DNA of 64,000 nucleotides from Candidatus Binatia bacterium (GCA_036000865.1 DASYUV010000252.1:623-64622); one strand, 5' to 3'. Positions 11,629-51,728 are shown, counted from the stretch's first letter. Made by a program: numbers and translations. The notes: generated by a model from the letters alone, not told the origin.

Positions 11629-12666
11629 TTATTTTACGGTCTTTCGAACTTCTTGAAGTATGGAGTAATCCACCAGAGCAGCCAGAGTCACCGGAGGGGC
11701 ATTGACCGCCTGCTTTCTAGCGTCTTCGTAAGGCGCTTGCAAGTCCGCGAGATCAATCTCTCCGTTGGGAAGAAAAACCCTCATGGCGTCATCGTAAATA
11801 GCATCAAAATTTTCCGGCTTCACGTCCAGCCGCTTCGCAAAGACAGCTTTGACTCGATTCCGATCCGCCTTCATCACTGTCAAGGCTCGGTACAGGGCTC
11901 TTATGCTTTTGCGGATTTCTTCCCTCTTGTCAGTCATCGTCTGGACTCCGATGCCGAGGCCCCCCACCGGCTGCCTGAGATACTGACCGGTGAAGAGGAG
12001 CGGCTTCATGCCGGCTTTCTCCGCCGGGATTTTTTCAATGTTGTTCAAAATGGCCGACTCTACATGCCCCGAGATCAGCGCGGCGATGCGCGTCGGCCCG
12101 CCGCCTATGGCGAGTATTTTCACGTCCTTGCTGGGGTCCAAATTGAAGTGACGGAAGGCGGCTCTGGCATCGAAATCCGTGGCCGAGCCGTATCTTGAAA
12201 TAGCCACCGTCTTACCCTTTAACTGCTCGATGTTCATGATCCCGGGCTTAGTGACAAGATAAAAGAAACTGCCGTTGAAAAAGTTGATCACGGTTTTAAC
12301 CGGAGCCCCGATGGCCGCCGCTTTCACCACGCTGCTGATGCTGGATGCAAAGTCGATGTCTCCGGTTACCAGCCCTTTCATGGCGATGTCCGAGCGGATC
12401 ACCACAATTTTTGAATCAATTCCCTCCGCTTTTAGATATCCCAACTCCTCGGCGACAAAGATGGGCGAAGCCGATACATCCGTCGCCGAGACCGCAAATA
12501 CTACACGTTTGAGACTTTGAGCCGAAGCCGGCCTGGCTTTGAGAATAACAAAGGCGCAAAGCAATAGGAGCAGGAAAGCCGCAGGTCGGAACCCGTTTAC
12601 CCTGCGATTCGTCAAGGAGCTTATAGGCAGCGCGCCGCTATTTTCCACATGACTACTTTTTTGCAT
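11629..12666 (-). CDS. NMT1/SsuA-TauA-type periplasmic solute-binding protein (SBP-1)
   Basis: Signal peptide ...AAFLLLLLCAFVILKARPASA/QS and the AISRYGSATDF motif. An AGGAG RBS precedes it, 11 nt after alpha-1. Confidence 0.8.
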   Translation of the reverse strand: MQKSSHVENSGALPISSLTNRRVNGFRPAAFLLLLLCAFVILKARPASAQSLKRVVFAVSATDVSASPIFVAEELGYLKAEGIDSKIVVIRSDIAMKGLVTGDIDFASSISSVVKAAAIGAPVKTVINFFNGSFFYLVTKPGIMNIEQLKGKTVAISRYGSATDFDARAAFRHFNLDPSKDVKILAIGGGPTRIAALISGHVESAILNNIEKIPAEKAGMKPLLFTGQYLRQPVGGLGIGVQTMTDKREEIRKSIRALYRALTVMKADRNRVKAVFAKRLDVKPENFDAIYDDAMRVFLPNGEIDLADLQAPYEDARKQAVNAPPVTLAALVDYSILQEVRKTVK

Positions 12667-12677
12667 CTGTCACTCCT

Positions 12678-13187
12678 TTAGATTTCGTCAAAGATGATGT
12701 CCCCGGTTAGCAGCACGGCCGCGGGTTGCAGCCAAGCTTCGGCCGATAGTTGGGCTCGCTTTATCGCCCAGGCAATTTCCTCGACCTTGTCAACGACGGT
12801 ATAGGCAACGTGAAGATCTTTTAAAACCGGTTCGGTGGTGAAGTGATAAGGCCCCATGAACCAAATGCCATCGCCGAGACTGCCTCTATAGGGCACGACC
12901 ATCAGGACCGGTATGTTTTTCTGCATATTCAAAGTGGTCAATGGAAAGGCGGCAGCGAGTATCCCCGCCGTGGGGATAAGCAGAGCGGGTTTTTTTCCTC
13001 CCATCCATGCCCCGGCGCAAACACCGACTCCGATGCCTTCGTTGCTGACCGATACGCATTGGAAAGACTTATCGTTCATCGCGGTTCGCTGGACTTCGGC
13101 CCAATCCGAGTCCGGCAGTATGGAAATGAAATTTATCCCGGCCTGCTTTAGCCCGCTAATGCTCGCTTCGACAGCTTCTTTTTTCAT
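12678..13187 (-). CDS. Split ThDP-dependent decarboxylase, alpha (PYR-domain) subunit, ComD-like (alpha-1)
   Basis: 169 aa, with the VSNEGIGVGVCAG catalytic-Glu motif of ThDP pyrimidine-binding domains. Confidence 0.75.
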   Translation of the reverse strand: MKKEAVEASISGLKQAGINFISILPDSDWAEVQRTAMNDKSFQCVSVSNEGIGVGVCAGAWMGGKKPALLIPTAGILAAAFPLTTLNMQKNIPVLMVVPYRGSLGDGIWFMGPYHFTTEPVLKDLHVAYTVVDKVEEIAWAIKRAQLSAEAWLQPAAVLLTGDIIFDEI

Positions 13188-13239
13188 AGACCGCGGCTGT
13201 TCCGTTTCGAATTCATAAAATGAACGGCGATAGGGGTCA

Positions 13240-13851
13240 CTACTCTACAAGAGGCGATTGTGAGCGAAGCCGCAGGACCGGTTTTTTTTCTGTTTCTTCG
13301 ATATATCCGGCAAAGATGTATTTATTGCGCTTGCCGTCCATATTAAGGTGAGCAACTTTTACCGTCCCCGTTTCAATCTTGGCGACCAGAACGCTCAGTT
13401 CCTTCGCTTCAAGAAAAGCTTGAGCGTTCTTTTTGAATTCTTCCACGCTCGAAACGGTTAAAGTTTTTTTGATTCCGCTGGCGTCGGCGATCTTTTCCAG
13501 ATTGGTGTCTCCCGCCGTGGCGGAAGGGAGTCCTCCCGGGGATTCATAAGCTTCATTATCAAAGATGATGATCCGCAGGTTGGCTGGTTTGTGACGCGCC
13601 ACGTCCGCCAGCGAAGCCAGGTTCATGAGCATGTTTCCATCGCCGTCCAAAGCGATGACTCGTCTCTTCGGTAAAGCTAATGCCAAGCCGAGCGCCACCG
13701 GCGTGCATTGACCCAAGTTGACGTTGTAAAGGTTTGCCGGGGACGCGCGCACGGCGTGCAATTCCAGCGAGGTATTGCCCACGTTGGCAACCACGATGTC
13801 TTCGTCCGCAATGATGGAAGCAAGAATGTCGAGGCACTCATATCGTTTCAT
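13240..13851 (-). CDS. Split ThDP decarboxylase beta subunit (beta-2)
   Basis: The start MKRYECLD overlaps the alpha-2 stop as ATGA. It has LDGDGN-x24-FDNE and the tail NKYIFAGYIEETEKKPVLRLRS. Confidence 0.8.
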   Translation of the reverse strand: MKRYECLDILASIIADEDIVVANVGNTSLELHAVRASPANLYNVNLGQCTPVALGLALALPKRRVIALDGDGNMLMNLASLADVARHKPANLRIIIFDNEAYESPGGLPSATAGDTNLEKIADASGIKKTLTVSSVEEFKKNAQAFLEAKELSVLVAKIETGTVKVAHLNMDGKRNKYIFAGYIEETEKKPVLRLRSQSPLVE

Positions 13852-14348
13852 CGTAACGTCTCCCCGGAAAAAAGCACGCAGATCGGATTTTGCCATGCGA
13901 ACGACGATGCCACGGCATCTTTAATGGCCGTGTCGACCTCGGCAATTTCCCGCACGACGACGTGAGGGATCTGCAACGCCTCGAGGATCGGCTCGGTGGT
14001 AAATTTGTACGTCCGCATCACCCAAAAAGCGTCGCCAATGTCACCGCGATAGGGAACCAGCAATAATAACGGGATTCCCCACAGCTGATTCAGACTGCCC
14101 AGCGGCCAAACTGAAACCAGCAGTCCAGAAGTCGGTATAATCATGGCCGGCACCTTGCCGCCCAAATAAAGGCCAGCACATATTCCCACTCCAATGCCCT
14201 CATTGCTCACGGGTATATAAGTGAATGTCGGGTCTTCGGCGATCATCCTCTGGACGTCGGCAAAACCATGATCAGGCAGAATGGCCACCGAATCCACGTG
14301 AGCCTCTTTAAGCCCCTTTACAATTGCGCTGCTCGTCTTTGCGTTCAT
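13848..14348 (-). CDS. Split ThDP decarboxylase alpha subunit (alpha-2)
   Basis: 166 aa with the VSNEGIGVGICAG motif. It is collinear with alpha-3 (31939-32439) over its full length. Confidence 0.8.
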   Translation of the reverse strand: MNAKTSSAIVKGLKEAHVDSVAILPDHGFADVQRMIAEDPTFTYIPVSNEGIGVGICAGLYLGGKVPAMIIPTSGLLVSVWPLGSLNQLWGIPLLLLVPYRGDIGDAFWVMRTYKFTTEPILEALQIPHVVVREIAEVDTAIKDAVASSFAWQNPICVLFSGETLR

Positions 14349-15924: not shown

Positions 15925-16917
15925 TCATTTTGCAGAGGCTCGCGCCACCCTCAGCAACGACCAATCCACCAAGTCATCCAATCCTACGGGTGGCGGTTTG
16001 GTGGCCGCCTTGCGCGCGTCTTCATAGGGAGCGACTAAATCGCTCGCTGGAATCTCGCCCTCGGGCAGAAACACTTTCAACATAGACTCATAGGCGCTAT
16101 CGAACTGCTTCGCGCTAATGGCCAATTCTTTGTCAAAAAAATCTTTTATCGCGTTCTTGTCATTTTTCAGGACCGTTAACGCCCGATATACCGCTCTGAG
16201 CGATTTCACTAAAAAATCCCGATTCGTCCGAATCTTCTCGATGGAAGTTCCCAATCCGCCCACAGGTTGTTTATTAAACTGCCCGGTAGAAAGGAGCGCT
16301 TTCATGCCGGCTTTTTCAGCGTGTTCCTTTTCACCTTCCGTAAGGATTGCCCCATCGACCCGCCCGGAGACCAGTGAAGTAAGACGGTTCGTTCCTCCGC
16401 CCACCGGAAGGATGGTAACATCGCGTCCGGCCTCCAAAGAAAAGTGCTTCAAGACCGCTCTCGCGTCGAAATCAGTAGCGGATCCGTATCGCGAAATAGC
16501 AATGGTTTTTTTTCTCATCATCTTTATGTCGGTAATATCCGGCTTGGTAACGAGGTAGAAGAACCCGCCGTTAAAAAAACTGACGACGATTTTTACCGGG
16601 ATACCGACCGCGGCCGCCTTCGTAACGCTACTTAAGCTCCCGGCAAAGTCGGCGTCGCCCGAGATGAGGCTCGCTATTTGAAGATCCGACCTCATCACCA
16701 CGATTCGTGGTTCCAATCCCTCCTTCTTGAAGTAACCCAACCGATCCGCCAACCAGACGGGAGCCGATGACAAATCTTTTGTCGACACGGTGATCACGAC
16801 ATAATTTTTTTGCGTTTGGGCGGCGCTCGGTCGCGCTGTCCCGGCGATCACCAGCGTCAGCCAAACAATAAAGGGAACGCCGGTGATGACTAGCTTGCGA
16901 AATCCAGGTGCACTCAT
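15925..16917 (-). CDS. NMT1/SsuA-type solute-binding protein (SBP-2)
   Basis: Signal peptide ...VPFIVWLTLVIAGTARPSAA/QT and the AISRYGSATDF motif. It is a close paralogue of SBP-1. Its start overlaps the Rieske oxygenase stop (ATGA). Confidence 0.8.
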   Translation of the reverse strand: MSAPGFRKLVITGVPFIVWLTLVIAGTARPSAAQTQKNYVVITVSTKDLSSAPVWLADRLGYFKKEGLEPRIVVMRSDLQIASLISGDADFAGSLSSVTKAAAVGIPVKIVVSFFNGGFFYLVTKPDITDIKMMRKKTIAISRYGSATDFDARAVLKHFSLEAGRDVTILPVGGGTNRLTSLVSGRVDGAILTEGEKEHAEKAGMKALLSTGQFNKQPVGGLGTSIEKIRTNRDFLVKSLRAVYRALTVLKNDKNAIKDFFDKELAISAKQFDSAYESMLKVFLPEGEIPASDLVAPYEDARKAATKPPPVGLDDLVDWSLLRVARASAK

Positions 16918-20576: not shown

Positions 20577-22901
20577 ATGGCCCAATATAAGGTGATAGGA
20601 ACTCCTGTGGAACGAGTGGATGGTCCGGAGATGCTTTCCGGCCAAGCGTTGTACGCACCGGATATGAAACTGCCGGCCATGTTATGGGGAAAGATTTTGC
20701 GAAGTCCGATACCGCACGGAAAAGTTTTGCGCGTCGACGTGGAAAAAGCAAAGAAGCATCCGGGAGTGAAAGCGGTAATTTGCGCCAAAGACGTACCGGC
20801 GCGCCGGTATGGCTATGCCATCGAGGACGAACACATTTTTGCCATCGACAGGGTGCGTTATGTTGGCCAACCGATCGCCGCTGTGGCGGCCGTGGACGAA
20901 GATATCGCGGAAGAGGCGCTCTCATTGATCGAAGTCGATTACGACGAATTACCGGCGGTCTTTGACGCGGAAGAAGCCATCCGCGACGGCGCGCCGTTGG
21001 TGCATGAAGAGCTCGACAAATATAAAGCCCGCTCGGTGTACCTTGCGTCTTGGTACCCGGTGAAGGGGACCAACATCATGCATCAGGCCTCGAACCAACG
21101 CGGCGACGTAGAAGCCGCCCTCAAGAAGTCTGACTACGTTTTCGAAGACACTTTTCGCGCGAGCCAGATCCACCACAGCTACATGGAGCCCCATGCGACA
21201 CTTGTTGCGGTCCGCGGCGGCACGATTACCGTCTGGACCTGCTCCCAAGAAGTCTTTGAGCTGCGGACGGTCATGGCCGGTCTTTTCGGCGTGCCGGAAA
21301 GCAAAATGCGCGTGATCTGCACGAAGGTAGGCGGGGGCTTTGGCGGGAAAATCGAGCCGCGCCTTGAGCCGATCACCATCGCTCTTGCCATGAAGAGCGG
21401 GAAACCGGTGAAAATCGTCATGACAAGGACGGACGAATTTACCGCAGCCGCCGGGTCGACGCCGGCATTGGTGAAACTCAAAACCGGTGTCATGAAGGAC
21501 GGAACTCTGGTCGCGAGAGATATCGACTTTCTCTGGAATACCGGCGCGCATGCCGAAGGATTGGCGCCGAGCAATCGGGCCATGAAGGACGGCATCGGCC
21601 CCTACCGTATCCCTGACATCCGTGTGACCTCCACTCTGGTGTACACGAACAGGATTCGCGGCACGCAACTGCGGGGCTTGGGTGTGCCAGAGGGAGCGTG
21701 GGCCATAGAGTCGCAGACGGATATGATTGCCGAGCGACTGGGCATGGATCCGTTGGAGTTGCGGCTGAAAAACATACTTCATGAGGGCGATATAAATGCG
21801 ATCGGCGACGAGGTGCAGAGTATTGGTTTACGCGAATGTCTGGAAAAAGTCGCTGCGGAGATCGGCTGGGGAAAAGCCAAAGCGAGAAACGTCGGGCGCG
21901 GCCTGGCGGTGATTGCCAAATCGCCAACGACTCACTCCAGCATTTCCGGCGCCCATGTTCTGTTCAACGAGGACGGGAGCGCACAGGTGTTGGTGGGAGC
22001 GTCCGAAATAGGTCAGGGCATGTGTGTGGTCTTGTCTCAAATCGCAGCCGAAGAGCTTGGGATTCCGGTGGAAGCAGTGGGGATCACCTGCGCAGACACT
22101 GGCGCAACGCCCTACGACCGTGGGACTTTCTCGAGTCGAGTTACGTTTTATACCGGCATGGCCGTCAAGAAAGCTGCCGAGGACGCGAAAAAGCAGCTCC
22201 TCGAAATGGCTTCGAAGATGTCTGAGGTTCCGGAAAATGATTTGACGGTCGAGAACCAATGCGTCGTGTCAACGAAGCAGCCGCGCCTTTCACTCCCGTT
22301 TAGAAAAGTTCTGGAACAAGCTCACAATCGAGAGAAACCTATCTTGGGCCGGGGCTGGTATGGAGGAAAAGGCGATTACCCATCGCTCCCTCACAAAGCG
22401 CAGGGAAAAGAATACGTGCCTGGCTGGAAATATGCGGCCCAAGCCGTGGAAGTCGAGATCGACGAAGAGACCGGAATCATCAAAGTAAAAAGAATTGCCT
22501 CCGCCCACGATGTCGGCATGACTTTGAATCCGATCAGCGTCAGAGGCCAGATCACCGGCGGCGTCGTGATGGGACTCGGATACGCGCTTCACGAAAGGCT
22601 GCAGTTTGAAGACGGGAGGGTTATCAATCCCTCATTCATGGATTACAAGTTGCCGTCGGCTCATCAAATCCCGGAAATTGTTTCCATCCCCGTTGAGGTT
22701 CCGCTGCCGGAGGGGCCGTTTGGCGCCAAAGGCATTGGGGAGCTGGCCGTGGTTGGCATTGCTCCCGCTATCGGCAACGCCATTTGCGATGCGTTCAAGG
22801 TAAGGATCAAGGAACTGCCCCTTTTTCCGGAGCGAGTACTCACCGCGTTAGAGAGCGGTGGCGCCAACGATGCCGCGCGTTCTTCCGTGGCGAAGAAATG
22901 A
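20577..22901 (+). CDS. Molybdenum hydroxylase (xanthine dehydrogenase/aldehyde oxidase family) large MoCo subunit, copy 1
   Basis: 774 aa with the GGGFGGK motif, a ...RGLGVPEG loop and the C-terminal catalytic Glu context KGIGELAVVGIAPAI. Confidence 0.85.
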   Translation: MAQYKVIGTPVERVDGPEMLSGQALYAPDMKLPAMLWGKILRSPIPHGKVLRVDVEKAKKHPGVKAVICAKDVPARRYGYAIEDEHIFAIDRVRYVGQPIAAVAAVDEDIAEEALSLIEVDYDELPAVFDAEEAIRDGAPLVHEELDKYKARSVYLASWYPVKGTNIMHQASNQRGDVEAALKKSDYVFEDTFRASQIHHSYMEPHATLVAVRGGTITVWTCSQEVFELRTVMAGLFGVPESKMRVICTKVGGGFGGKIEPRLEPITIALAMKSGKPVKIVMTRTDEFTAAAGSTPALVKLKTGVMKDGTLVARDIDFLWNTGAHAEGLAPSNRAMKDGIGPYRIPDIRVTSTLVYTNRIRGTQLRGLGVPEGAWAIESQTDMIAERLGMDPLELRLKNILHEGDINAIGDEVQSIGLRECLEKVAAEIGWGKAKARNVGRGLAVIAKSPTTHSSISGAHVLFNEDGSAQVLVGASEIGQGMCVVLSQIAAEELGIPVEAVGITCADTGATPYDRGTFSSRVTFYTGMAVKKAAEDAKKQLLEMASKMSEVPENDLTVENQCVVSTKQPRLSLPFRKVLEQAHNREKPILGRGWYGGKGDYPSLPHKAQGKEYVPGWKYAAQAVEVEIDEETGIIKVKRIASAHDVGMTLNPISVRGQITGGVVMGLGYALHERLQFEDGRVINPSFMDYKLPSAHQIPEIVSIPVEVPLPEGPFGAKGIGELAVVGIAPAIGNAICDAFKVRIKELPLFPERVLTALESGGANDAARSSVAKK

Positions 22902-23938: not shown

Positions 23939-23951
23939 AGGACGCGACACC

Positions 23952-24917: not shown

Positions 24918-25144
24918 ATCCGACATGTCGATCTTTTCAGGCAGCGAAGGATCGTCAAAGAGGCCGGCTATTTCCACGAACAAGGCGTTGAGCCTCGGTG
25001 GATCACCATGAATTCGGACATTTAGGGAATCGGTAAGTTAAAGGGCACGCAGAGTCAATATCGAATGGTAATTTTGGACTCGCGATCTTAGTGGAATTGC
25101 ACGAATGAATCGTCTCACGGAAAATCCTCAGTCGGAGGTTAACG

Positions 25145-38159: not shown

Positions 38160-38191
38160 TTTACTTCCTCCGTTTCTTTGCACCCGATCGT

Positions 38192-39685: not shown

Positions 39686-40088
39686 TATTGGCTTTTCCTT
39701 TCTACAAAATCATAGTTACAAACCAATGATAAATTTCCACTTTGTCTTACGGGAGGTATAACATGAAACTTTCATTGTCAATTTGAAAATCGTAAAACTG
39801 AAATTGAATAAAATTTAAGCTGACTCACTCCCGGCTACAAGCTAAAAGGTGCAACCCCGGTCGGCCCGAAGGCGTCTGATGATCGGTGAGTAGTCGAAAC
39901 GATCGGTGTGCATTGTCGCGCTCCTCTATCGAACGAGTTAGACGAAAGCTATGACAGCCGGGATCGACTCGTCGAAGCGAATTAATCCTAATCTTGCATT
40001 ACCACAATGTGTGAGTAACAAAACCTAGTCAAATATATTTGAAATTTCGGTTGCTCATTGGATTGCAGAATCGGAAAAGAGATGGCTC

Positions 40089-40164
40089 GCGCAAAGACGC
40101 AAAGCACGCCAAGTTCGGAGGAGTAGAAAAATATCTTACTTTGCGCTCTTGGCGCCTTGGCGCG
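40089..40164. repeat. REP/MITE-like inverted repeat (GCGCAAAGACGCAAAG...CTTTGCGC...TTGGCGCG type)
   Basis: GCGCAAAGACGCAAAGCACGCCAAG faces CTTACTTTGCGCTCTTGGCGCCTTGGCGCG with partial complementarity, inside a 750-bp non-coding region. Confidence 0.5.
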
Positions 40165-40437
40165 ATATAATTTCTTGAAGTCGTTTTGTTCAAGATTGAA
40201 AAAGCAAGAAACTAGTCCTAATGCGTTGGCAATCTCACCAAGCGATCGCTAAAGCTGCTCCTTTTCTGGCATCCGGCGAGTCCTCTCATACGACCGGCGA
40301 AACACTCATCAAACCATGATGAAAAATGCCTGGGTTAATGACCGCTTTACCGTGGGCCATGTTGGCAGAAAAAGCGAGCTGTGATAGAGGAACAAACCAG
40401 TGAAAAGTGTGGCGATAATTCGGAGGAAATGAGTGTC

Positions 40438-41913
40438 ATGGATGTCGGTGAGATGGACCTGGTGATCCAACATGGGCAGGTGGTAACCAGCAGCGGGGTG
40501 AAGAAGCTGGCAATCGGCATAAAGGATGGGAGGATTGTCGCTTTGACTTCGGGAACCGAATCGCTCCAGGCGCGGCAGACTATCGATGCTGATGGCAAAT
40601 ACGTCTTGCCGGGGATCGTGGACCCGGAAAATCACATGGGAACGCATCGCCCGTTGAAAGACAGCTTGAATAGTGAGACGCGAGCCGCGGCAGCCGGGGG
40701 AGTAACCACCTGGGGAATGATGCAGGCGAGTCCGAAACTCAGAAAAGAGTATATTCACGAGCCTGAAGCGAAAGATGTCGTCCCGTTCTCCCGGGTTATG
40801 CCGGAGTTCATCGAAGTCGTCGAATCACATTCTTTTGTGGATATATTTCTTACTGGGTTTATCACGACCGACGAACAGGCTCTCGACATTCCCAAAGTGG
40901 CCCAAGAATTCGGCGTCACATCCTTTAAATATTATCTTCACATGATGCAGGGAGCACGGACTCAGGCTATGTGGGCCGGGCGAGAGCGAGGCGGGTGGCT
41001 GGGCTTCGATGACGGGACGATTTATTTGGGCATGGAGAAGACAGCTGAGCTCGGACCTCCCGGAATCATCTGTATCCACCCTGAGAACTATGAGATTGTC
41101 CGCTTATTCGAGGATCGTCTCAGGCGGGCGGGACGGACGGACATGGCCGCTTGGGACGAGCGCTCACCCCATTTTTGTGAGGCGGGACATGTAAGGACCT
41201 ATGCTTATTATGCCGGGGTCACCGGCTGCCCGCTCTACGTCGTGCATACGACGACGAAAGAATCGATAGACGAGATCCTCAAGGCCAGAGCCGAAGGCGT
41301 TAAGATCTACAGCCAGACCGGCCACCATTATTTGACACTGTCGCACGACGTTTGGAAGATCAACGTTCCGCTTCGCGACGAAGCCACCATGGCTGCGCTG
41401 TGGGAAGCTCTGCGAGCGGGGCACATCGACTGCATCGGCACGGACCACGTTGATTGGGGAATGTCGCGGGTGCAGATGGATAAAGGCAACGTGTGGGAAA
41501 CCAGCAGCGGCTTTCCTTCCCGCGTGGAGGCTTACTTGCCTGTTATGCTGACCGAAGGACTCCATAAAGGAAAAATTTCCCTGGAAAAGCTAGTCGAGGT
41601 CTGTTGTGAAAATCCTGCCCGAATTTTCGGCCTCTATCCTAAAAAGGGAGTGATCAGCATTGGTTCTGATGCCGATTTTGTCATTGTCGATCTCGAGCGC
41701 ACGGCCCAAGTGAAGCGAGACATGATCTACAGCTCGGCTGGATGGTCGATCTGGGAGGGCAAGGAGCTTAAAGGCTGGCCGGTTATGACGATCCTTCGTG
41801 GAAACGTCATCATGGAATGGCCGGAGGGAGCCCCTCGGGCGAGGATAATGATGGAAGGACCGCAGGGTCGGTATCTTCCGCGCAAGCCGGGCCAAGAGCT
41901 CTATCCAATTTAA
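40438..41913 (+). CDS. Hydantoinase/dihydropyrimidinase-like cyclic amidohydrolase (Hyd-C)
   Basis: The ATG at 40438 lies 11 nt after GGAGG. The track ORF begins at a GTG at 40381. DPENH, SFKYY, HPEN, YVVH and GTDH motifs. Confidence 0.8.
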   Translation: MDVGEMDLVIQHGQVVTSSGVKKLAIGIKDGRIVALTSGTESLQARQTIDADGKYVLPGIVDPENHMGTHRPLKDSLNSETRAAAAGGVTTWGMMQASPKLRKEYIHEPEAKDVVPFSRVMPEFIEVVESHSFVDIFLTGFITTDEQALDIPKVAQEFGVTSFKYYLHMMQGARTQAMWAGRERGGWLGFDDGTIYLGMEKTAELGPPGIICIHPENYEIVRLFEDRLRRAGRTDMAAWDERSPHFCEAGHVRTYAYYAGVTGCPLYVVHTTTKESIDEILKARAEGVKIYSQTGHHYLTLSHDVWKINVPLRDEATMAALWEALRAGHIDCIGTDHVDWGMSRVQMDKGNVWETSSGFPSRVEAYLPVMLTEGLHKGKISLEKLVEVCCENPARIFGLYPKKGVISIGSDADFVIVDLERTAQVKRDMIYSSAGWSIWEGKELKGWPVMTILRGNVIMEWPEGAPRARIMMEGPQGRYLPRKPGQELYPI

Positions 41914-41931
41914 GTTCTCCAGGGAGACTTT

Positions 41932-42903
41932 ATGATTTTGAAATTGCTGTTCGCTGGGATGGTTTTCGCGGCGGCGACGATTTTGGGTGCGGCTCAGGCG
42001 CAGTCGGTTCGGATCAGCTACGGCGGAACTTCGGGATATAACGTGCCCGTGTGGGTGACTCAGGAGGCCGGATTGTTCAAGAAGTACGGATTGAACGCAG
42101 AGCTGATCTTCATCAGCGGCGCCGCTCCTGGCATGCAGGCGATGCTCGCCAACGAGGTCCACTTCGCAAACACGTCAGGGTCGGCGCCTATCAATGCTAC
42201 GCTTCAGGGAACCGATGCCGTCATCATCGCTACGTCATACGATCTGATCCCTTACGGTTTTGTCGTGCATAAAGACATTCATACTCCTGCCGACCTGAAA
42301 GGGAAGATTATCGCGATCTCCCGATTGGGAGGCGTGACCGAGCTCGCCGCCCGAGTAACCTTCGAAAAGTTGGGGTTGAATCCCAAGGACATGACCTTGA
42401 TCCAGGCCGGCCCGGACGCGCAGAGAATTCCAGCCGTTCAATCCGGCAATGCGGCGGCTACGGTGATCGCGCCGCCCGGTCTTTTCGCGGCCGTCGCGCG
42501 CGGCCTGAGAGTTCTGGTTGACCTGACGGACTTGGGGATCAAGTATCCGACGTCTGTTTTCTTTGTCACGCGCTCTTTTCTCATGCAGAATCGGCCAGCA
42601 GTGAAGAAATTTCTAATGGCTTTTACTGACGGACTCCATCTTTACGCGCAGAGGCGGGACTTCGTGCTGCAGGTCATGAAGAAATACACGAAGCTTGATG
42701 ACGCGGACGTTTTGACGAAGTCGCATGATTATTTTGTTAAGAAAACTCTTCTGGTACCGCTGACGGATGCGGCGGCGGTAAAAAATGCCTTGCCGATGGG
42801 AAAGCCGGTCAATCGAAAACTCGAGGACTTTTACGATAATTCGATCGTGCAGGAGCTGATCAGCGAAGGGTTTGTGGAAAAAATTTCTAATGCCTACAAG
42901 TAG
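41932..42903 (+). CDS. NMT1/SsuA-type solute-binding protein (SBP-8)
   Basis: Signal peptide MILKLLFAGMVFAAATILGAAQA/QS and the AISRLGGVTEL motif. Confidence 0.8.
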   Translation: MILKLLFAGMVFAAATILGAAQAQSVRISYGGTSGYNVPVWVTQEAGLFKKYGLNAELIFISGAAPGMQAMLANEVHFANTSGSAPINATLQGTDAVIIATSYDLIPYGFVVHKDIHTPADLKGKIIAISRLGGVTELAARVTFEKLGLNPKDMTLIQAGPDAQRIPAVQSGNAAATVIAPPGLFAAVARGLRVLVDLTDLGIKYPTSVFFVTRSFLMQNRPAVKKFLMAFTDGLHLYAQRRDFVLQVMKKYTKLDDADVLTKSHDYFVKKTLLVPLTDAAAVKNALPMGKPVNRKLEDFYDNSIVQELISEGFVEKISNAYK

Positions 42904-42944
42904 GAAGGCGCTGCATCAATTGACACCAACCCTAGGAGGCAATC

Positions 42945-44396
42945 ATGGCTCAGGTGGAAGTGCTTTTTAAGAATGGAAAGATTGTAACCTCCGGGAAAAT
43001 TATCGAGGGCTTTGTCGCCGTCGAAAAGGAGAAAATCGTCGCCGTCGGCGAGGGAGACGCTGCACCGCAAGCACTGAAGACAATCGATCTTAAAGGTCGC
43101 ACATTGATTCCCGGAGTCGTTGACCCGGAAGTCCATTTTGGCAGCCACCGCTGGGTCGGAGACGAATTCGATTCGGAGACCCGCGGCGCCGCCTCCTATG
43201 GCATCACGACCTGGGGCTTCATGCAGCCCAGCGCCAACATGGGACAGCCGTACAAGGCTGAAAAGACCGAGGAGGAAGTGCCGCTCTATGCCGACGTATT
43301 CGGCCTGTTTCGGGAGCTCGGCGAGGCGCGCTCGATGGTCGATTTTTTTCTCACCCCGAAGATTTTAAAAGACGAACACGCGCTGGAAATTCCGCGGTTG
43401 GCGCGGGACTTTGGCATGACGTCGTTTAAATACCAGCTTCATCTCATGAGCCCGGAGCGTACGGCGACTTACTGGCCCAACCGAAAAAGCCAGGGTTATT
43501 TCGGGTATGATGACGGAACGATTTATCTGGGCCTGGAAGCAGTCGCCAAATTGGGACGCCCCGCGATTGTCTGCATGCACTGTGAGAACTGGGAGATCGC
43601 TCGCATCTTCGAAGAGCGTCTTTTAAAAGCGGGGCGAAAGGAATACCGGGTTTGGAACGAGCGCTCACCGCATTTTTGCGAAGCCGGGCACGTGCGCGCG
43701 TATACGTACTACGCGCGCGTTCTAAAATGCCCGCTTTACATCCAGCACACCACCACTCCGGAAACAATCGAGGAGATCACCAAGGCAAGAGCGGAGGGCG
43801 CTACTGTGTACGCGCAGACGGGGCCTCATTATCTGAGCCTCACCGAAGACATGTGGCGCATCAACGTGCCGCTGCGGAGCGCAGAAACCATCGAGATCCT
43901 TTGGCAGGCCCTGGCGGACGGCCGCATCGACTCGGTGGGCAGCGACCATACGAACACGGGCAGATCACGCAAGGAGATGGAAGTCCCCGGTGATATCTGG
44001 GCAACAAGAACCGGGTTCCCTTCACGGGGAGAGGCGGCCCTGCCGGTAATGCTCAATGACGGCGTGAACCGGGGACGGATTTCGCTCCTTCGGATGGTTC
44101 AAGTCTGCTCGGAGAATCCGGCGCGGATCTTTGGACTCTACCCGAAGAAGGGCGTTATCGCACCGGGGGCCGATGCGGACCTCGTGGTGGTAGACCTGGA
44201 TCGGAAGGTTAAAGTGACCAACGACATGGTTCATAGCTCGGCCGGCTGGACGCTGTGGGAGGGGAGAGAGATGAAAGGCTGGCCCGTGATGACCGTGCTC
44301 CGCGGGAAGACAATCGCGGAGTGGCCCGACGGGGGAAAGAGACCGGAAATCGTCTCCAAGCCGTTCGGTCGCTACCAACCCCGTTCGCTGGGGTGA
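42945..44396 (+). CDS. Hydantoinase/dihydropyrimidinase-like cyclic amidohydrolase (Hyd-D)
   Basis: AGGAGG RBS. DPEVH, SFKYQ, HCEN, YIQH and GSDH motifs. Confidence 0.8.
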   Translation: MAQVEVLFKNGKIVTSGKIIEGFVAVEKEKIVAVGEGDAAPQALKTIDLKGRTLIPGVVDPEVHFGSHRWVGDEFDSETRGAASYGITTWGFMQPSANMGQPYKAEKTEEEVPLYADVFGLFRELGEARSMVDFFLTPKILKDEHALEIPRLARDFGMTSFKYQLHLMSPERTATYWPNRKSQGYFGYDDGTIYLGLEAVAKLGRPAIVCMHCENWEIARIFEERLLKAGRKEYRVWNERSPHFCEAGHVRAYTYYARVLKCPLYIQHTTTPETIEEITKARAEGATVYAQTGPHYLSLTEDMWRINVPLRSAETIEILWQALADGRIDSVGSDHTNTGRSRKEMEVPGDIWATRTGFPSRGEAALPVMLNDGVNRGRISLLRMVQVCSENPARIFGLYPKKGVIAPGADADLVVVDLDRKVKVTNDMVHSSAGWTLWEGREMKGWPVMTVLRGKTIAEWPDGGKRPEIVSKPFGRYQPRSLG

Positions 44397-46006: not shown

Positions 46007-47479
46007 CTACGGCACAAACCGCAAGGGTAGTCCTTTTGCAGCGAAGGACTTTTTGTATAGCTCACGAATCGTTCGGTGGGAACGATCCGGCTTGTTTTTG
46101 ATGCGACCGTAGAGGCGGTACATTGTTTTGCTGATCGGTTCCACCCTCCGGATCAGGGCGTCCTCGTCAACATTGGTGAGACGGCCGCCCTCCAGTACCA
46201 CCTTGCCGTCTACCAGAACCGTGTCCACCGACTGACCTCCTTCACAGAAGACCAGTTGGTGGACGATATCCCTTAGCGGACGAAGTTGAAGGCTGGGTTT
46301 TAATAAAAGAAGGTCAGCACGGTAACCAGGTTTGATCTTGCCTATTTTGCCGCGCCACGCGGGAATAGCTTGGGCCCCGTTGACGGTTCCCATCCTGAGG
46401 GCATCCAACGCGGTAATCCAGGTTTCGGGATCTTCCGCAGCGATCCGTGATAGAAAAGCAGCCAATCGCATTTGCTCGAAGATCGAATAGCTATCGCTCG
46501 TGTCGCCACCGTCGGTGCCGAGAGCCACATTGACCCCGCGGGCTTTCAATTTGGCAACGGGCGCAACGCCGCTTCCGAGTTTGAGATTACTGGCCGGGTT
46601 ATGAACGACGCTCGCTCCGGATGATGCTAAAAGATCCATTTCTCTCTCGTCCAGCCAAATGCTATGCGCCGTTGAAACCCGCGGTGAGAGAAATCCAATA
46701 TCCGCAAGGTGAGCGCATAGAGTTTTTTTATAAATCTTGTGGGCCGCCCATGCTTGCAGTCTCGTCTCCAAAAGGTGCGTGTGAATCCCCAGGTCAAATT
46801 GCTCAGCAACTTTGACGACTTCTCGGAGCAGCTCGTCGCTGCAGTTCATCGGCGAAGAAGGCCCAAGCATGATGCCAGAGGGAGTAGGGGAGCGACGAAG
46901 ACGCGCGAGAACCGTGAGCACTTCCTCTTTCCAAGGCTCCGGCGAAGCCTTCTGAGCCGCCTTTTTGCCGTTCTGTTGCGTTGCCAAGCGAATAAAATCT
47001 TGATCGCGCAGCGAAGGAACCAGCATTCCCCGGATGCCGGTTTTTTCGAACGCGCCAAGAATAGCTTCCATTTTGCCTACGCTGAGCCCGGGCCGCGTGG
47101 AGAAATGATCTACAACGGCCGTCACTCCGTTCTTAAGCATTTCGGAACAAGCCAGCTCCGCTGCGGTTCCAATCTCCTCGGCCTTCAAATGCGCGAGGTC
47201 TTCCGTCGTAGCCCTATAGCCGCGCCAGATTTCCATCCGCACGTTATCGCGAAAGCTTTTTTGGAGAATCTCCGTCAGGTGAGAGTGAGCGTTAACCAGG
47301 CCCGGCATGACAATCATTTCCGAGCAGTCAATTCGCCTTGTGATTGGAAGCCCTCTTGTGTGAATCTTCCTTCCCACCTGAGCGATGGTGCCCTCGTGAA
47401 TGAGAATCTGCTGCGCTTCGAGAATGGGCTTCGAGGCGTTTAGAGTGACAAGGGATGCATTTTCCAACAGGATCGCCAT
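46007..47479 (-). CDS. TRZ/ATZ-family amidohydrolase, second copy
   Basis: PGLVNAHSHL, GIHTHLLE and LGTDGG motifs. The ATG at 47479 (MAILLENASLVT) is preferred over the GTG at 47521. Confidence 0.75.
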   Translation of the reverse strand: MAILLENASLVTLNASKPILEAQQILIHEGTIAQVGRKIHTRGLPITRRIDCSEMIVMPGLVNAHSHLTEILQKSFRDNVRMEIWRGYRATTEDLAHLKAEEIGTAAELACSEMLKNGVTAVVDHFSTRPGLSVGKMEAILGAFEKTGIRGMLVPSLRDQDFIRLATQQNGKKAAQKASPEPWKEEVLTVLARLRRSPTPSGIMLGPSSPMNCSDELLREVVKVAEQFDLGIHTHLLETRLQAWAAHKIYKKTLCAHLADIGFLSPRVSTAHSIWLDEREMDLLASSGASVVHNPASNLKLGSGVAPVAKLKARGVNVALGTDGGDTSDSYSIFEQMRLAAFLSRIAAEDPETWITALDALRMGTVNGAQAIPAWRGKIGKIKPGYRADLLLLKPSLQLRPLRDIVHQLVFCEGGQSVDTVLVDGKVVLEGGRLTNVDEDALIRRVEPISKTMYRLYGRIKNKPDRSHRTIRELYKKSFAAKGLPLRFVP

Positions 47480-47588
47480 AAGCTTTGTCTTCTCGCGTGG
47501 TGAAATTCTTGTCGAAGGCACCTATTATTCAGGATTAACAGCACTTTCGGAGCGAATACTTTCGGGCGAAGCGGCAGGCCTCTGCGGT

Positions 47589-47663: not shown

Positions 47664-48680
47664 CTAGCGCGCGTAAAGCGCGTCGATGAATCCGCTCTGA
47701 TCCAGCTCTCTAACAAAGTGCAGATCAACGAGATCTTCCGGTTTGATCGCGCGTGCCTTAGGATCTTTCTCTCCAATGGTTCCTAAAACCGTCTTGAGTC
47801 CCTCGAGCGTCGGATATTGTTTGCGGGGAAGTTGGTTATCCGCAATGTAGCGGTCGTAGGCTCTTTCCATGCTATCTTTGTCGCGCACTTTGCCAAAGTA
47901 TTTTGCCGCTACCTTGAGCCCTGTCTCACGGTCGGTCTTGAGTCGATGGATGGCTTCCACATGGGCCTTCACATATCTCCCCACGGTGTCGGCGTTTTCG
48001 CGGATGAATTTACGCGTCGTGACCGCGCCGGTGTGCTGAAACGCCAAGCCCAGCGAAGCAACGTCGGCGAGCACTGTAAAGCCATTTTTTTGGCCGATGA
48101 AACTGGTGGGCGGATTGAAGACAGCGCCTTCTACGCGCTTTGCCGTCATCGCCAAAAAGCGATCCGTGTTCGTTCCGACCTGAACTATGGTGACTTCCTT
48201 CTCAGGCGTAAGGCCGACTCTCTGAAGCGCAAATCGTGCGACAAAGTCGGAAACCGAGCCGAACCTGCTAATCGCGATCGATCCGCCTTTTAACTGCGCG
48301 GGGGCCTTGATCTCCGGCCGGCCCATTAGCCACCAATCAAGCGTGATGGTCCCTCCTGCGACGAACACCGGATCGCTCCCTGCGAGATAAGCGTTGACCA
48401 CCTCCGGGCCGGCATTTTGGGAAATCGCGGTGTCGCCGGAAACAAGCGCCATGGCCGCTGTCGTTCCTCCGGTGAAATAAACGAGCTGAACATCGAGGCC
48501 ATTTTTTGTGAAGAGTCCTGTGTCCTTTGCAATCCAAGCCGGCAGTTGATCATAACTGATGGCGCTATAGGCGACAGTAATTCGGGTCAGCTTCTCCGCG
48601 GGTTGTACGGCGGGACGCCACGCCAGTATGAAGACAATGGTCGCGAGGATTATGGATGTCAGAGTGCGCACGGTGCCCAT
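47664..48680 (-). CDS. NMT1/SsuA-type solute-binding protein (SBP-9)
   Basis: N-terminal hydrophobic signal or anchor (LTSIILATIVFILAW), the AISRFGSVSDF motif and the C-terminal LDQSGFIDALY tail. Confidence 0.8.
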   Translation of the reverse strand: MGTVRTLTSIILATIVFILAWRPAVQPAEKLTRITVAYSAISYDQLPAWIAKDTGLFTKNGLDVQLVYFTGGTTAAMALVSGDTAISQNAGPEVVNAYLAGSDPVFVAGGTITLDWWLMGRPEIKAPAQLKGGSIAISRFGSVSDFVARFALQRVGLTPEKEVTIVQVGTNTDRFLAMTAKRVEGAVFNPPTSFIGQKNGFTVLADVASLGLAFQHTGAVTTRKFIRENADTVGRYVKAHVEAIHRLKTDRETGLKVAAKYFGKVRDKDSMERAYDRYIADNQLPRKQYPTLEGLKTVLGTIGEKDPKARAIKPEDLVDLHFVRELDQSGFIDALYAR

Positions 48681-48729: not shown

Positions 48730-50160
48730 TTACAAAAGTATGTGACGCCATTTTTCGGTTACTTTGGCTCGCTCTTCCGGCGTCAGCGCATGGTCCTTTG
48801 AGAAGTCTTTGATCCAGCGAAATGGCCGGCAGGCGTCGATAATGGCGCGCGAGTTGGTGAAATCGCCCTGACTTCTTTGCTCCGGCGGAATCCTGGGATC
48901 GATCGGGCTGCTCCAGCATCCGCGCACGATCTCGATAGATGTTTCCGGGTCGCACCTCGTAGCAATCGCCCACAAAACATCGGCCATGTTGGACGGGTCG
49001 ATGTCGTCGTCAACGACAATCACGAAGCGTCCCAAGTATCCGCCCTCACGGGCACCAAGGGCTACATGAGCCGCCTGGCGCGCGTGGCCGCCGTAGCGTT
49101 GCCGCAGGGAGATGACTTGTAAGAATCTCATGCCGGATTCGAGTTGCCATACGCCCTTGACGTCGGTGACGCCGCACTTTTCCAGTTCGTTCCAGATTTC
49201 GGCGGATCGAAAAAGCAGCGACAGGTAACTGTCGAGCGGATAAATTTTTAGATCTCCAACGACCGTGATGATCGGATCCGTGCGGTAATAAATTCGTTTG
49301 ACGTGAATGACCGGGGCAGGGCGGGTGGCCGAGGCGTAGTAGCCGGTCCATTCACCAAAGGGGCCTTCGGGCCTCGACTCTACATCAGGAGGCGGCATCT
49401 CGCCTTCCAAAACGATTTCCGCGTGCGCCGGAATCGGTAGCCCCGTATGCTCGCCGGTAACAACTTCAAATGGCTTGCCGGCGACATGACCGGCAAAGTC
49501 GTATTCCGACACTCCCCATGGAAGCCCCAGAGATGCCGCGGCAAAAAGGACCGGCTCAATGCCGCACACAACCGCTACAGGGCAGGCCTGTTTTTTCATC
49601 CAATATTGCTCGGCGATTAGCCGTGTTTGTTTGCCGGGAGAGATGTAAATGCTCACAACCGCAGGCTCTTGGAGCTGCACTCTGGCGGTGCCGAGATTGA
49701 CCCAATTTCCTTCCGGATCTTTTGTGATGACCGCATCCTGTGTGCCGATGTATTTTCCGCCGTCGTCCTTGTGGAGCTTGGGTGCGGGAAATTTGAAAAC
49801 GTCGATATCTTGTCCCCGGAGGACGTGTTCCGTGATCGGCCCCGAAGTAACTAGTTTGGGCGGAACGGGCTCATGGTCTTCCATCCGTTTGCGAATCGCG
49901 TCGACCAGGGCAGGTCCTCTCAGAGTAGCGTTAACTCCCAACGACTCGGCGGTCCGGCGTTGAGTTTGAAACATGTTGATCAGAACCCGGTAGCCATCGG
50001 GGTAACCTTTAATCTTGTCGAACAGTAAGGCCGGCGGCTCCGTTCCCAAACCGGAAACCTCGGCCAAGGCGCCGATGTCAAGATCCGCGTCCGCGCCTTC
50101 GACTATCTTCAATTGGCCGTTGGCCCGCCAATCCTCTATCAATCCTCGCAAGTCGCGCAT
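48730..50160 (-). CDS. UbiD-family decarboxylase (UbiD-3)
   Basis: EGPFGEWTGYYAS motif. It is a paralogue of UbiD-1. Confidence 0.8.
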   Translation of the reverse strand: MRDLRGLIEDWRANGQLKIVEGADADLDIGALAEVSGLGTEPPALLFDKIKGYPDGYRVLINMFQTQRRTAESLGVNATLRGPALVDAIRKRMEDHEPVPPKLVTSGPITEHVLRGQDIDVFKFPAPKLHKDDGGKYIGTQDAVITKDPEGNWVNLGTARVQLQEPAVVSIYISPGKQTRLIAEQYWMKKQACPVAVVCGIEPVLFAAASLGLPWGVSEYDFAGHVAGKPFEVVTGEHTGLPIPAHAEIVLEGEMPPPDVESRPEGPFGEWTGYYASATRPAPVIHVKRIYYRTDPIITVVGDLKIYPLDSYLSLLFRSAEIWNELEKCGVTDVKGVWQLESGMRFLQVISLRQRYGGHARQAAHVALGAREGGYLGRFVIVVDDDIDPSNMADVLWAIATRCDPETSIEIVRGCWSSPIDPRIPPEQRSQGDFTNSRAIIDACRPFRWIKDFSKDHALTPEERAKVTEKWRHILL

Positions 50161-50191: not shown

Positions 50192-50270
50192 CTGTCATTT
50201 CGAGCCCTTCGGCAAGGCTCAGGACAGGCGCGAGAAATCCAAGATCCCTCGCTTTCACTCCGGATGACAG
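50192..50270. repeat. REP/MITE-like element (CTGTCATTTCGAG...CGCGAGAAATC...CGGATGACAG)
   Basis: Terminal inverted repeats CTGTCAT.../...ATGACAG. The internal CCCTTCGGCAAGGCTCAGGACAGG segment resembles widespread small palindromic elements of environmental genomes. Confidence 0.6.
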
Positions 50271-50318
50271 CCAATGTACAGCCGTTGCAACATAGTATCT
50301 TGGGAGAGAAGTCTAGCC

Positions 50319-50663
50319 TTACGTCCCCAGTTGTTTGTTCGCATCGACGCTGACAAAAATTTTCCCGTCTTCTTCCGTGACGGTGTAGCGCTCTATCTTA
50401 TAGCCCGTGCAGTTCAATCCTTCTCCGGTTTCGAGATCGAAAGTGAAGGCGTGCTGGCCACATCGGATCATCTTGTTCCAGACGTTGCCTTTTTCCAAAG
50501 GCGCTCCTTCATGGGGGCATCGCCTTTGAATGGCGTAGAGGTTGCCGGAGCAGCGCAAAACCAAAACCTCTTTGCCATCGGGCAGCTTGGTGATGAAGAA
50601 GCCCTCTTCCTCGAGGGCGGAAAGTTGTCCGACAAAAATGGCTTCCACTAGTCGCTCCGCCAA
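50319..50663 (-). CDS. Rieske [2Fe-2S] ferredoxin-like protein
   Basis: 114 aa with the CPH-x16-CGQH Rieske motif. Confidence 0.8.
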   Translation of the reverse strand: MAERLVEAIFVGQLSALEEEGFFITKLPDGKEVLVLRCSGNLYAIQRRCPHEGAPLEKGNVWNKMIRCGQHAFTFDLETGEGLNCTGYKIERYTVTEEDGKIFVSVDANKQLGT

Positions 50664-50735
50664 AACACTTAATGCAGATTCTTTTGCGCGTTTTCGATTT
50701 CCTAGTGGAAGCTAAACTTTCTGTCAAGGCGGCGG

Positions 50736-51728
50736 CTACCGGTATAGCTTCTGAACCAAGCCGCTTGCTTCCAACTCTTTCAGAAGGCGGATATCGGCAA
50801 ACATTTCCGGCTTGAGGCCTTTGACTTTGGGATCTTTCTTGGCGATTTCGTTGAGCACATTCTGAATGCCCTTCATATCCGGATAGGGGACTCTGGGAAT
50901 TATATCTTGGTAATGGCGATAGGTTTCGTCGATGAGAGTTGCATCCCCGAGCCGGGCGAAGGCGTCAAGCGACTTCATGCTGGCTTCTTTTTGCGTCTTG
51001 AAAAAGTGGATTCCCTCGACCATCGCTTTCATGATGCGGCGGGTTAGCTCCTCGTTTTTCGATACATTGGAAGCGGTGCTGACAATGCACGTATTCGGAT
51101 AGGCAAGATTAAGTTGCTCGGGAGTGGCGATTTCGTTGAATCCTGACTTGCGGGCAACGATATCGGCAGGGGGTCCGACAATCGTTCCGTGCACGGTGCC
51201 GCTCTTAAGAGCGGTGAGGCGTGCCGGTTGACTGCCGATCTGGAGAATTGCCACGTCTCGATCGGGAACAAGCCCCCATTTATCGAGGGCATAACGAACG
51301 ACAAAATCGGTTGAAGAGCCGAAGCGGCTTACGCCCAATTTTTTTCCTTTCAGGTCCTGGGGCTTCTTAACCTCCGGCGCAGTGATGATACTGAAATCGA
51401 TAAGATTGATCAGACCTCCCAGTATCACCGTATCGGCGCCCTGCAAGCGGGCCAGTATCGAAGGTTCACCGCTCACCACCGCAATGGGCAGATCACCTGC
51501 AATGAGGGCTTGAATAATTCCGCTTCCGCCGGCGATAAGTACAAGGCTGACATCGAGGCCGTTTTTCGAGAAAATGCCAGCATCCCCAATGACCCGAAGA
51601 ATTGCCTGGGAACCCGAGATGGAGGAATATCCGAGATTGATACGGATTGGTTTTTCCTGGGTTGCGCCGGGGAGAGGAAATAAAAAAGCGACCCATAGGG
51701 CAATTATTGCGGAGGTGAGATATCTCAT
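50736..51728 (-). CDS. NMT1/SsuA-type solute-binding protein (SBP-10)
   Basis: ATG at 51728 after GGAGG. Signal peptide MRYLTSAIIALWVAFLFPLPGAT/QE, the GVSRFGSSTDF motif and the LEASGLVQKLY tail. Confidence 0.8.
   Translation of the reverse strand: MRYLTSAIIALWVAFLFPLPGATQEKPIRINLGYSSISGSQAILRVIGDAGIFSKNGLDVSLVLIAGGSGIIQALIAGDLPIAVVSGEPSILARLQGADTVILGGLINLIDFSIITAPEVKKPQDLKGKKLGVSRFGSSTDFVVRYALDKWGLVPDRDVAILQIGSQPARLTALKSGTVHGTIVGPPADIVARKSGFNEIATPEQLNLAYPNTCIVSTASNVSKNEELTRRIMKAMVEGIHFFKTQKEASMKSLDAFARLGDATLIDETYRHYQDIIPRVPYPDMKGIQNVLNEIAKKDPKVKGLKPEMFADIRLLKELEASGLVQKLYR

Follow-up and report, generated by a model that had tools for sequence, protein, structure and literature searches.

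Orphan NMT1-type binding proteins in a catabolic island of a Candidatus Binatia genome, and a shared NitT/TauT translocator probably lost from it

A catabolic gene island has been examined in a 64,000-nucleotide stretch of a Candidatus Binatia bacterium genome (GCA_036000865.1 DASYUV010000252.1:623-64622), here called the window. The island contains ten intact paralogous NMT1/THI5-type binding-protein open reading frames (ORFs) within 11.6-51.7 kb, named SBP1 to SBP10, which are interspersed with enzyme genes and have no permease or ATPase beside them. Relatives carrying the same binding-protein/enzyme cassettes possess one NitT/TauT permease/ATPase pair per island, and the window is without exactly the segment in which that pair is found. 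Our preferred explanation, which we consider probable, is that many specificity modules feed one shared NitT/TauT translocator whose local copy has been lost in the window lineage. On this reading the island follows a design already known, that of one pump serving many binding proteins, on an exceptional scale.

Ten binding proteins in catabolic operons

A sequence-only reading of this DNA had proposed ten orphan binding proteins of the NMT1 type, and Pfam searches and mutual blastp matches have borne this out. All ten copies score above the gathering threshold of NMT1 (PF09084; E 3e-11 to 8.5e-26, 44-92 bits against a cutoff of 20.5), and nine also pass NMT1_2 (PF13379), the exception being SBP5 with 23.0 bits against 24.7. 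A PDB profile search with the ten copies returned 3qsl as the best match (1.8e-32), followed by TauA, SsuA, THI5, ThiY and NrtA. The AlphaFold model of SBP10 (predicted local distance difference test score 92.3, predicted template modelling score 0.86) was matched by Foldseek to 3qsl, TauA, the pyrimidine binder ThiY, a thiamin binding protein, SsuA and the pyrroloquinoline quinone binder PqqT, with probability 1.00 for 3qsl, TauA, ThiY and SsuA; enzymes of the same fold, namely THI5, DszB and MqnD, are also among its relatives. The model and the loop alignment described below show a class-F binding protein of two lobes, in which the ligand loop opens a helix of lobe 2. The label 'SsuA-type' is appropriate at the superfamily level and fails for SsuA proper, as all ten copies remain far under the cutoffs of the TauA and SsuA equivalog models and reach only 35.7-93.5 bits against 163.5 for SsuA_fam (NCBIfam TIGR01728, TIGR01729, NF008553 and NF008588 were the models used). 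By these profile scores, the ten proteins are assigned to a divergent branch of the NMT1 superfamily, of the NitT/TauT binding-protein type and outside SsuA/TauA proper. A sulfonate-specific interpretation, pairing SsuA with sulfopyruvate decarboxylase, was considered and dropped: the models are under cutoff, and the island has no Xsc, SuyAB or sulfite-handling genes.

Blastp comparison of the copies agrees with two of three subfamilies that had been drawn by eye. SBP1 and SBP2 share 53% identity, and SBP3, SBP6, SBP7, SBP8, SBP9 and SBP10 form a clear group (27-37% identity, E 1e-33 to 1e-75). The third, SBP4 with SBP5, is loose, with about 30% identity between the two and each about equally close to SBP1. 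Directly after the SBP4 stop, a short stretch (24918-25022, plus strand) bears a weak likeness (E 0.003-0.4) to approximately residues 48-94 of SBP1, SBP2 and SBP4, and may be a remnant of another binding-protein copy or a chance similarity.

All ten copies begin with a basic N-region, continue with a hydrophobic core of 12 residues (mean Kyte-Doolittle value 2.25-3.45) and then have a site of small residues right ahead of the first mature-domain strand, as in SBP1, where the core FLLLLLCAFVIL is followed by ARPASA/QS. The SBP10 model sets residues 2-16 apart as a helix of their own, with a linker of low confidence after it. Judged by n-, h- and c-region features and hydropathy, the N-termini fit predicted Sec-type signal peptides, in agreement with the earlier claim of signal-peptide-bearing proteins. 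Twin-arginine-like N-regions occur in SBP4 (Table 1) and SBP1 (NRRVNGF); the other eight look Sec-type. A lipobox-like LVSAC had been pointed out in SBP3, but a lipoprotein is rejected, since the Cys is not conserved in orthologs, whose cleavage sites are of the ordinary AxA type.

The motif (A/G)(I/V)SRxG(S/G)x(S/T)(D/E), first counted in seven copies, is present in eight of the ten; the loops of SBP4 and SBP5 are divergent, as had been noted (Table 1). In alignments, the TauA loop FISTTH and the 3qsl loop GVTAPGSST, the latter opposite GVSRFGSST, fall at the position of the SRxGSxxD loop. In TauA, the backbone of Thr132 binds the taurine sulfonate and its side chain binds the amine (PMC6906117); the position of Thr132 within FISTTH was obtained by manual residue count, not as direct tool output. 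Because it aligns with the TauA and 3qsl loops, the motif is predicted to form the ligand loop in functional binding proteins, to which this family adds a specific Arg.

The ten genes lie in a 46-kb block (approximately 10.9 to 57.0 kb) bordered on both sides by housekeeping genes, with ClpA, an M48 protease and a 2-oxoacid:ferredoxin oxidoreductase on the left and Rpe, RsmB, Fmt, Def and PriA on the right. The enzymes of the block include five split thiamine pyrophosphate (TPP)-decarboxylase alpha/beta pairs, which resemble sulfopyruvate and phosphonopyruvate decarboxylases but fall under the model cutoffs, three UbiD decarboxylases, a Rieske oxygenase and a Rieske ferredoxin, two Mo-hydroxylase large subunits with FAD, 2Fe-2S and CoxG subunits, and four hydantoinase-like and two TRZ/ATZ-like amidohydrolases. 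Other genes encode 3-hydroxyisobutyrate-dehydrogenase-like and VOC proteins, an IclR regulator, an LLM oxidoreductase, a YCII protein and two DUF3891 proteins. Binding proteins and cytoplasmic enzymes share same-strand gene strings, with spacing from 4-bp overlaps (Rieske/SBP2 and Mo-hydroxylase/SBP3) to about 140 bp. Gene order, spacing and conserved pairs thus place these orphan binding proteins in catabolic operons without transporter genes, and all ten, together with all of the approximately 30 enzyme genes, are intact.

Linkage of the ten to a TauC/SsuC-type permease and a TauB-type ATPase was not found in the 64-kb window. The NitT/TauT permease and ATPase of a relative, used as tblastn queries, gave no match over the whole 64 kb at E ≤ 1e-3, and no remnants of the permease, the ATPase or their own binding protein (SBPcog, see below) were found in the window. 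The sole polytopic membrane ORF in a hydropathy scan was the housekeeping M48 protease (8989-10254). The earlier statement that the island has no membrane transporter is therefore upheld.

One translocator per island in relatives

Homologs of the binding proteins number at least 1180, mainly from soil metagenomes, and the nearest named one, from a 'Candidatus Binatia bacterium' metagenome-assembled genome (MAG), is 89% identical to SBP10. A search with an alignment of five SBP3 orthologs yielded 8 GTDB loci. Binding-protein/enzyme pairs recur at 70-91% amino acid (aa) identity in MAGs and contigs of Binatia, 'Eisenbacteria' and 'Deltaproteobacteria' (loci L006, L007, L009, L011-L014, L074 and L075). 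The recurring strings are MoHyd-SBP3-SBP4-UbiD-DUF3891-CoxG-FAD-FeS (MoHyd being the Mo-hydroxylase), TPPa-TPPb-SBP6, SBP10-Rieske-UbiD-SBP9-amidohydrolase and hydantoinases-SBP7. SBP3 orthologs (70-80% identity) always follow a Mo-hydroxylase of 770-775 aa in L007-L013 and L074, and SBP4 orthologs (75-84%) come after them in L009, L011, L012 and L013. In L075, a locus from a Binatia MAG, an SBP5 ortholog (74%) adjoins a Mo-hydroxylase; an SBP6 ortholog (78%) keeps the order TPPa-TPPb-SBP in L011 and L012, and SBP7 orthologs at 90-91% identity are found in L006 and L014.

The syntenic relatives L011 and L007 each contain one permease (286 aa) and one ATPase (256 aa), annotated as NitT/TauT and carrying BPD_transp_1 and ABC_tran domains, with an NMT1 binding protein of their own, SBPcog, before them. 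L011 combines SBP3, SBP4 and SBP6 orthologs that have no adjoining permease with a single SBPcog-permease-ATPase operon, and L007 is similar; island-level linkage to the pair is thus seen in relatives only, for the SBP3, SBP4 and SBP6 orthologs in L011 and the SBP3 ortholog in L007. A metagenome scan with the island-type permease produced 59 loci with one pair each, in the conserved context FAD-FeS-MoHyd-(Amidohydro_2)-DUF3891-SBPcog-permease-ATPase-DUF3891. The full module (L082, L083 and L091) reads binding protein-DUF3891_a-SDR-SDR-FAD-FeS-MoHyd-Amidohydro_2 and continues with DUF3891_b-SBPcog-permease-ATPase-DUF3891_c-YCII. The sequence-only reading had offered, as one of three explanations, many modules feeding one distant shared permease; the comparative data support the sharing and not the distance, as the permease lies within the island in relatives.

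That each binding protein is part of an ordinary ATP-binding cassette (ABC) system split apart, with its own cognate permease and ATPase elsewhere in the genome, is highly improbable. NitT/TauT systems are usually complete operons and the rest of the genome is unseen, both of which speak for such a split. Yet the binding-protein-anchored loci (approximately 178 kb from ten other organisms) hold about 36 NMT1 binding-protein genes versus 2 permease/ATPase pairs, the permease-anchored loci hold a single pair with its own binding protein, plus up to 3 binding proteins, and the binding proteins are operonic with enzymes and not with transporter genes.

In some relatives, the slot beside the split-TPP genes is occupied by TctC or SBP_bac_1/8 binding proteins instead. 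TctC proteins, of the tripartite tricarboxylate transporter (TTT) type, adjoin split-TPP genes in L009 (357-3578), in the slot of the NMT1 proteins of the window, and ABC-type SBP_bac_1/8 proteins lie inside the islands of L013 (4173-5252) and L007 (6592-7551 and 17005-18141). None of these TctC and SBP_bac_1/8 genes has a membrane partner nearby. The cassette design seems independent of the binding-protein family.

Such replacements, together with weak sub-threshold matches of the ten copies to TAXI and NMT1_3 models, might suggest that a different transporter class is served, be it a TAXI-type tripartite ATP-independent periplasmic (TRAP) transporter, a TTT system or an unrelated ABC family. 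This is hardly credible given the scores, which are at most 30.9 bits against 84.35 for the TAXI-TRAP models (TIGR02122 and PF16868) and at most 19 bits against 27 for NMT1_3, and none of the ten copies matches TctC (PF03401) at E ≤ 0.01. Moreover, the window and the relatives' loci are devoid of TRAP or TTT membrane genes, and the NitT/TauT pair is the only membrane transporter that repeatedly accompanies the islands.

A role other than transport, as periplasmic sensors, as buffering or scavenging proteins, or as enzymes on a binding-protein fold in the manner of THI5, DszB and MqnD, is very unlikely. Those three enzymes are fold relatives, binding-protein scaffolds have been co-opted for sensing in known cases (PMC8938411), and no translocator is nearby. 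The island, however, has no histidine kinase, chemoreceptor or diguanylate cyclase; its regulators are cytoplasmic, of the IclR type in the window and the RpiR or LysR types in relatives. Cytoplasmic enzymes like THI5 are disfavoured by the predicted signal peptides, the ligand loop typical of transport binding proteins has been kept, and in L011 and L007 the orthologs share an island with a matching translocator. The sensor and non-transport readings offered earlier have found no support.

At the right end of the island the window departs from the full module (Table 1). By blastn, window 56957 to 55470 corresponds to L082 273 to 1754 and window 55372 to 54150 to L082 11743 to 12942, and the same split pattern was obtained against L083, L038, L058 and L028. 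What the window lacks is thus precisely the 8-10 kb with the permease/ATPase pair, SBPcog and one set of Mo-hydroxylase genes. The gene that opens the module is a pseudogene in the window. Its two downstream fragments are 78-94% identical (aa) to the intact 329-335 aa binding protein of L082 and L083, and its 5' fragment 58%. A pseudogene had been noticed before and is real, although it lies outside the 11629-51728 interval to which it had been assigned. The YCII gene, too short for the list of ORFs of 150 aa, follows directly after the ATPase in L007.

The arrangement DUF3891_a/DUF3891_c/YCII/LLM was also found in four Joint Genome Institute assemblies (3300036860/61/63/64) and two Logan runs (SRR11742948 and SRR11742962) of the window population, represented by loci L084-L087 and L089-L090, and a third Logan contig starts inside it. 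Because the junction recurs in other assemblies, it is not an assembly error. The block is present in every relative in which both flanks are visible and the flanking gene of the window has decayed, so that a lineage-specific deletion of the local translocator block is the parsimonious inference from these alignments. Since the block is absent here and in-island in relatives, the orphan state would reflect local loss and not the normal island layout. Dating of the pseudogene by a three-taxon comparison of nonsynonymous to synonymous rates (dN/dS; 142 codons) gave inconsistent omega values of 0.07-2.15.

Table 1. Binding-protein genes of the island and features at the site of the missing block. 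SBP coordinates refer to probable start codons.
Feature	Position	Strand	Description
SBP1	11629-12666	-	345 aa; NMT1 4.3e-17; 11-bp gap after split-TPP alpha gene upstream
SBP2	15925-16917	-	330 aa; start overlaps Rieske oxygenase stop by 4 bp; UbiD 12 bp after
SBP3	22898-23938	+	346 aa; ATG overlaps stop of Mo-hydroxylase 20577-22901 by 4 bp
SBP4	23919-24917	+	332 aa; TTG start; Tat-like N-terminus TRRFLIL; divergent ligand loop GITSRNGSQH
SBP5	30881-31837	+	318 aa; after Mo-hydroxylase 28526-30829; divergent loop SISSFGGAIY
SBP6	33194-34198	+	334 aa, or 328 aa from ATG at 33212; after split-TPP alpha/beta pair
SBP7	35588-36589	-	333 aa, or 326 aa from ATG at 36568; downstream of two hydantoinase-like genes
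SBP8	41932-42903	+	323 aa; two hydantoinase-like genes on either side, gaps 18 and 41 bp
SBP9	47664-48680	-	338 aa; between UbiD 48730-50160 and amidohydrolase 46007-47521
SBP10	50736-51728	-	330 aa; opens string SBP10-Rieske ferredoxin-UbiD-SBP9
YCII-family gene	54126-54449	-	107 aa, intact; follows DUF3891_c, as in L082
DUF3891 type c	54517-55359	-	right flank of missing block; 81-86% aa identity to L082/L083 DUF3891 after ATPase
Junction spacer	55360-55468	.	109 bp; site of relatives' SDR-SDR-FAD-FeS-MoHyd-Amidohydro_2-DUF3891_b-SBPcog-permease-ATPase (8-10 kb)
DUF3891 type a	55469-56314	-	left flank of missing block; 90-91% aa identity to L082/L083 DUF3891 after first binding protein
Eleventh binding-protein pseudogene	56374-57020	-	three frames, two frameshifts, degraded 5' part

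A proposed shared pump and its precedents

According to the shared-translocator explanation, ten exported two-lobed binding proteins would each be co-transcribed with the cytoplasmic enzymes that process its ligand, namely split TPP-dependent decarboxylases, UbiD decarboxylases, Mo-hydroxylases, cyclic amidohydrolases and deaminases. As exchangeable specificity modules they would bring different substrates to one ABC translocator composed of the 286-aa permease and the 256-aa ATPase, with its own binding protein. Loss of the 8-10 kb block would have made DUF3891_a and DUF3891_c neighbours, the adjacent binding-protein gene would have decayed, and a working copy of the translocator would survive elsewhere in the genome. 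Docking of the orphans on the island-type translocator is what we infer from the shared islands. The ligands are probably carboxylated N-heterocycles or related acids, a class suggested by the xanthine dehydrogenase-like hydroxylases, cyclic amidohydrolases, deaminases and decarboxylases, by a NicX-like gene in L082 and by the fold neighbours PqqT and ThiY. Adjoining the translocator module at L082 18050-20449 are an Amidohydro_2 gene and the NicX-like gene, which belongs to the 2,5-dihydroxypyridine dioxygenase family; this neighbourhood hints at pyridine-ring catabolism.

In a three-taxon comparison of two copies, SBP7 and SBP10 showed a dN/dS of 0.05 on the window-specific branch, with dS of approximately 0.3; neighbouring enzymes gave 0.03-0.16 in the same comparison. 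Such low ratios argue that the binding proteins are still in use, and this continued constraint would in turn place a translocator elsewhere in the genome. Several results weigh against the shared-translocator explanation. No permease or ATPase occurs in the 64 kb, which leaves any partner in the rest of the genome unseen. None of the 59 loci of the metagenome scan came from the window samples 3300036860-64, whose inclusion in the collection is unconfirmed, and none of the best 120 permease homologs lies on the 897-kb L006 contig, the closest long relative. SBPcog is only 22-28% identical to the orphan binding proteins, and the signal-peptide call is a heuristic one. Cluster membership offered no sample-level accessions by which to trace the population's own permease. 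One permease candidate found in Logan only, P0165, was rejected as the population's own, as it comes from other runs.

The same deletion could have left the modules stranded, with the only translocator deleted, the ten binding proteins and island uptake non-functional, and the genes intact merely because the loss is recent. We regard this as unlikely, though it deserves some weight. In its favour are the clean absence of the block and the decay of the neighbouring binding-protein gene to a pseudogene, whose two better-kept fragments are still so close to the intact orthologs that decay may be recent; the 64 kb hold no permease or ATPase, and the metagenome scan recovered no permease contig from the same samples. 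Against stranding, the ten binding proteins and some 30 enzyme genes are all intact, the constraint on SBP7 and SBP10 extends over a window branch with dS of about 0.3, and, since six or seven assemblies show no other haplotype, the deletion is no rare defective variant.

Rather improbable, too, is the proposal that NMT1-type binding proteins function without a dedicated translocator, ten of them and about 30 linked enzymes being kept under strong purifying selection after deletion of the island's only one. They might then dock promiscuously on an unrelated importer or have a periplasmic capture or sensing role. Were this so, the binding-protein/enzyme cassettes would be free-standing units that can be plugged into any host transporter.

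The closest precedent for the shared translocator is the Cbc system of Pseudomonas. There the translocator CbcWV works with a binding protein of its own, CbcX, and in addition with CaiX and BetX, whose genes belong to catabolic operons without transporter genes; caiX lies in the operon caiX-cdhCAB-hocS, with CbcWV encoded elsewhere (PMC5806209; PMC8938411). The work on CbcXWV, CaiX and BetX (Chen et al., 2010; Thomas, 2010, 'Homes for the orphans') is taken here as described in those two papers. In common with Cbc, the island as seen in relatives has a core ABC translocator with its own binding protein and extra binding proteins in catabolic operons, which would each supply that core with a different substrate. 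The single core with its own binding protein occurs once per island in relatives and is absent from the conserved site in the window. Cbc differs in being of the betaine/choline type, whereas the translocator of the island's relatives is NitT/TauT, and in having 2 orphans versus at least 10. The island core is normally in the same island and has probably been lost in the window genome, and the island orphans are paired, cassette-like, with paralogous enzyme families.

SsuABC, TauABC, ThiXYZ (through ThiY) and PqqT share the binding-protein fold and the ligand-loop position with the window proteins. The latter, however, are far under the SsuA and TauA cutoffs and have the family-specific loop Arg; they are linked to decarboxylases, hydroxylases and amidohydrolases and not to sulfonate monooxygenases, and have no adjoining permease. 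The closest solved relative is PDB 3qsl, a 'putative exported protein' of Bordetella bronchiseptica (CAE31940; Foldseek TM 0.77), which is functionally uncharacterised, has approximately 21% identity to the window proteins and is without the loop Arg. An expansion of orphan receptors is known for the Bug/TctC proteins of tripartite tricarboxylate transporters in Bordetella and others. It resembles the island in its many signal-peptide-bearing binding proteins versus few membrane units, and TctC is found in the same split-TPP slot in L009, but the fold family is another one, unmatched by any of the ten, and secondary TTT transport stands against primary ABC transport. In the literature, nothing specific was found on NMT1-type orphan expansions or on Binatia binding-protein islands.

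These comparisons suggest that in uncultured soil Binatia and neighbouring lineages catabolism is organized as cassettes of one binding protein plus enzyme(s), with a single NitT/TauT pump apparently in common. The 'homes for the orphans' principle would be widened from 2-3 binding proteins to at least 10, and to a transporter family for which it is not known to have been described. The ligand of a binding protein would predict the substrate of its neighbour, which would help to assign substrates to many uncharacterised enzymes of the UbiD, split-TPP, Mo-hydroxylase, hydantoinase and DUF3891 types. In this population the pump block is naturally missing, a ready-made test of how far the modules depend on that pump. 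For annotation, the partnerless 'ABC transporter substrate-binding protein' genes found here are not assembly artefacts.

Further features of the island

The DUF3891 proteins are of three paralog types, a, b and c, with 35-48% mutual identity (window 54517-56314; L007, L009, L011, L082, L083 and L091). Their genes constantly accompany the Mo-hydroxylase, UbiD and translocator cassettes, and the proteins may be accessory or maturation factors. At the left end of the island, the minus-strand order is alpha-beta-alpha-SBP1 (14348 to 11629), next to a lone plus-strand TPP beta gene (10926-11549). No TPP-alpha partner was found upstream of the latter, where the 671-bp stretch 10255-10925 is gene-free, and it looks as if an inversion has split one TPP alpha/beta pair (10926-14348). 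The four hydantoinase/dihydropyrimidinase-like paralogs (36693-44396; 49-56% identical to one another) are grouped around SBP8 and upstream of SBP7, and their cluster encloses a divergent intergenic region of 695 bp at 39686-40380.

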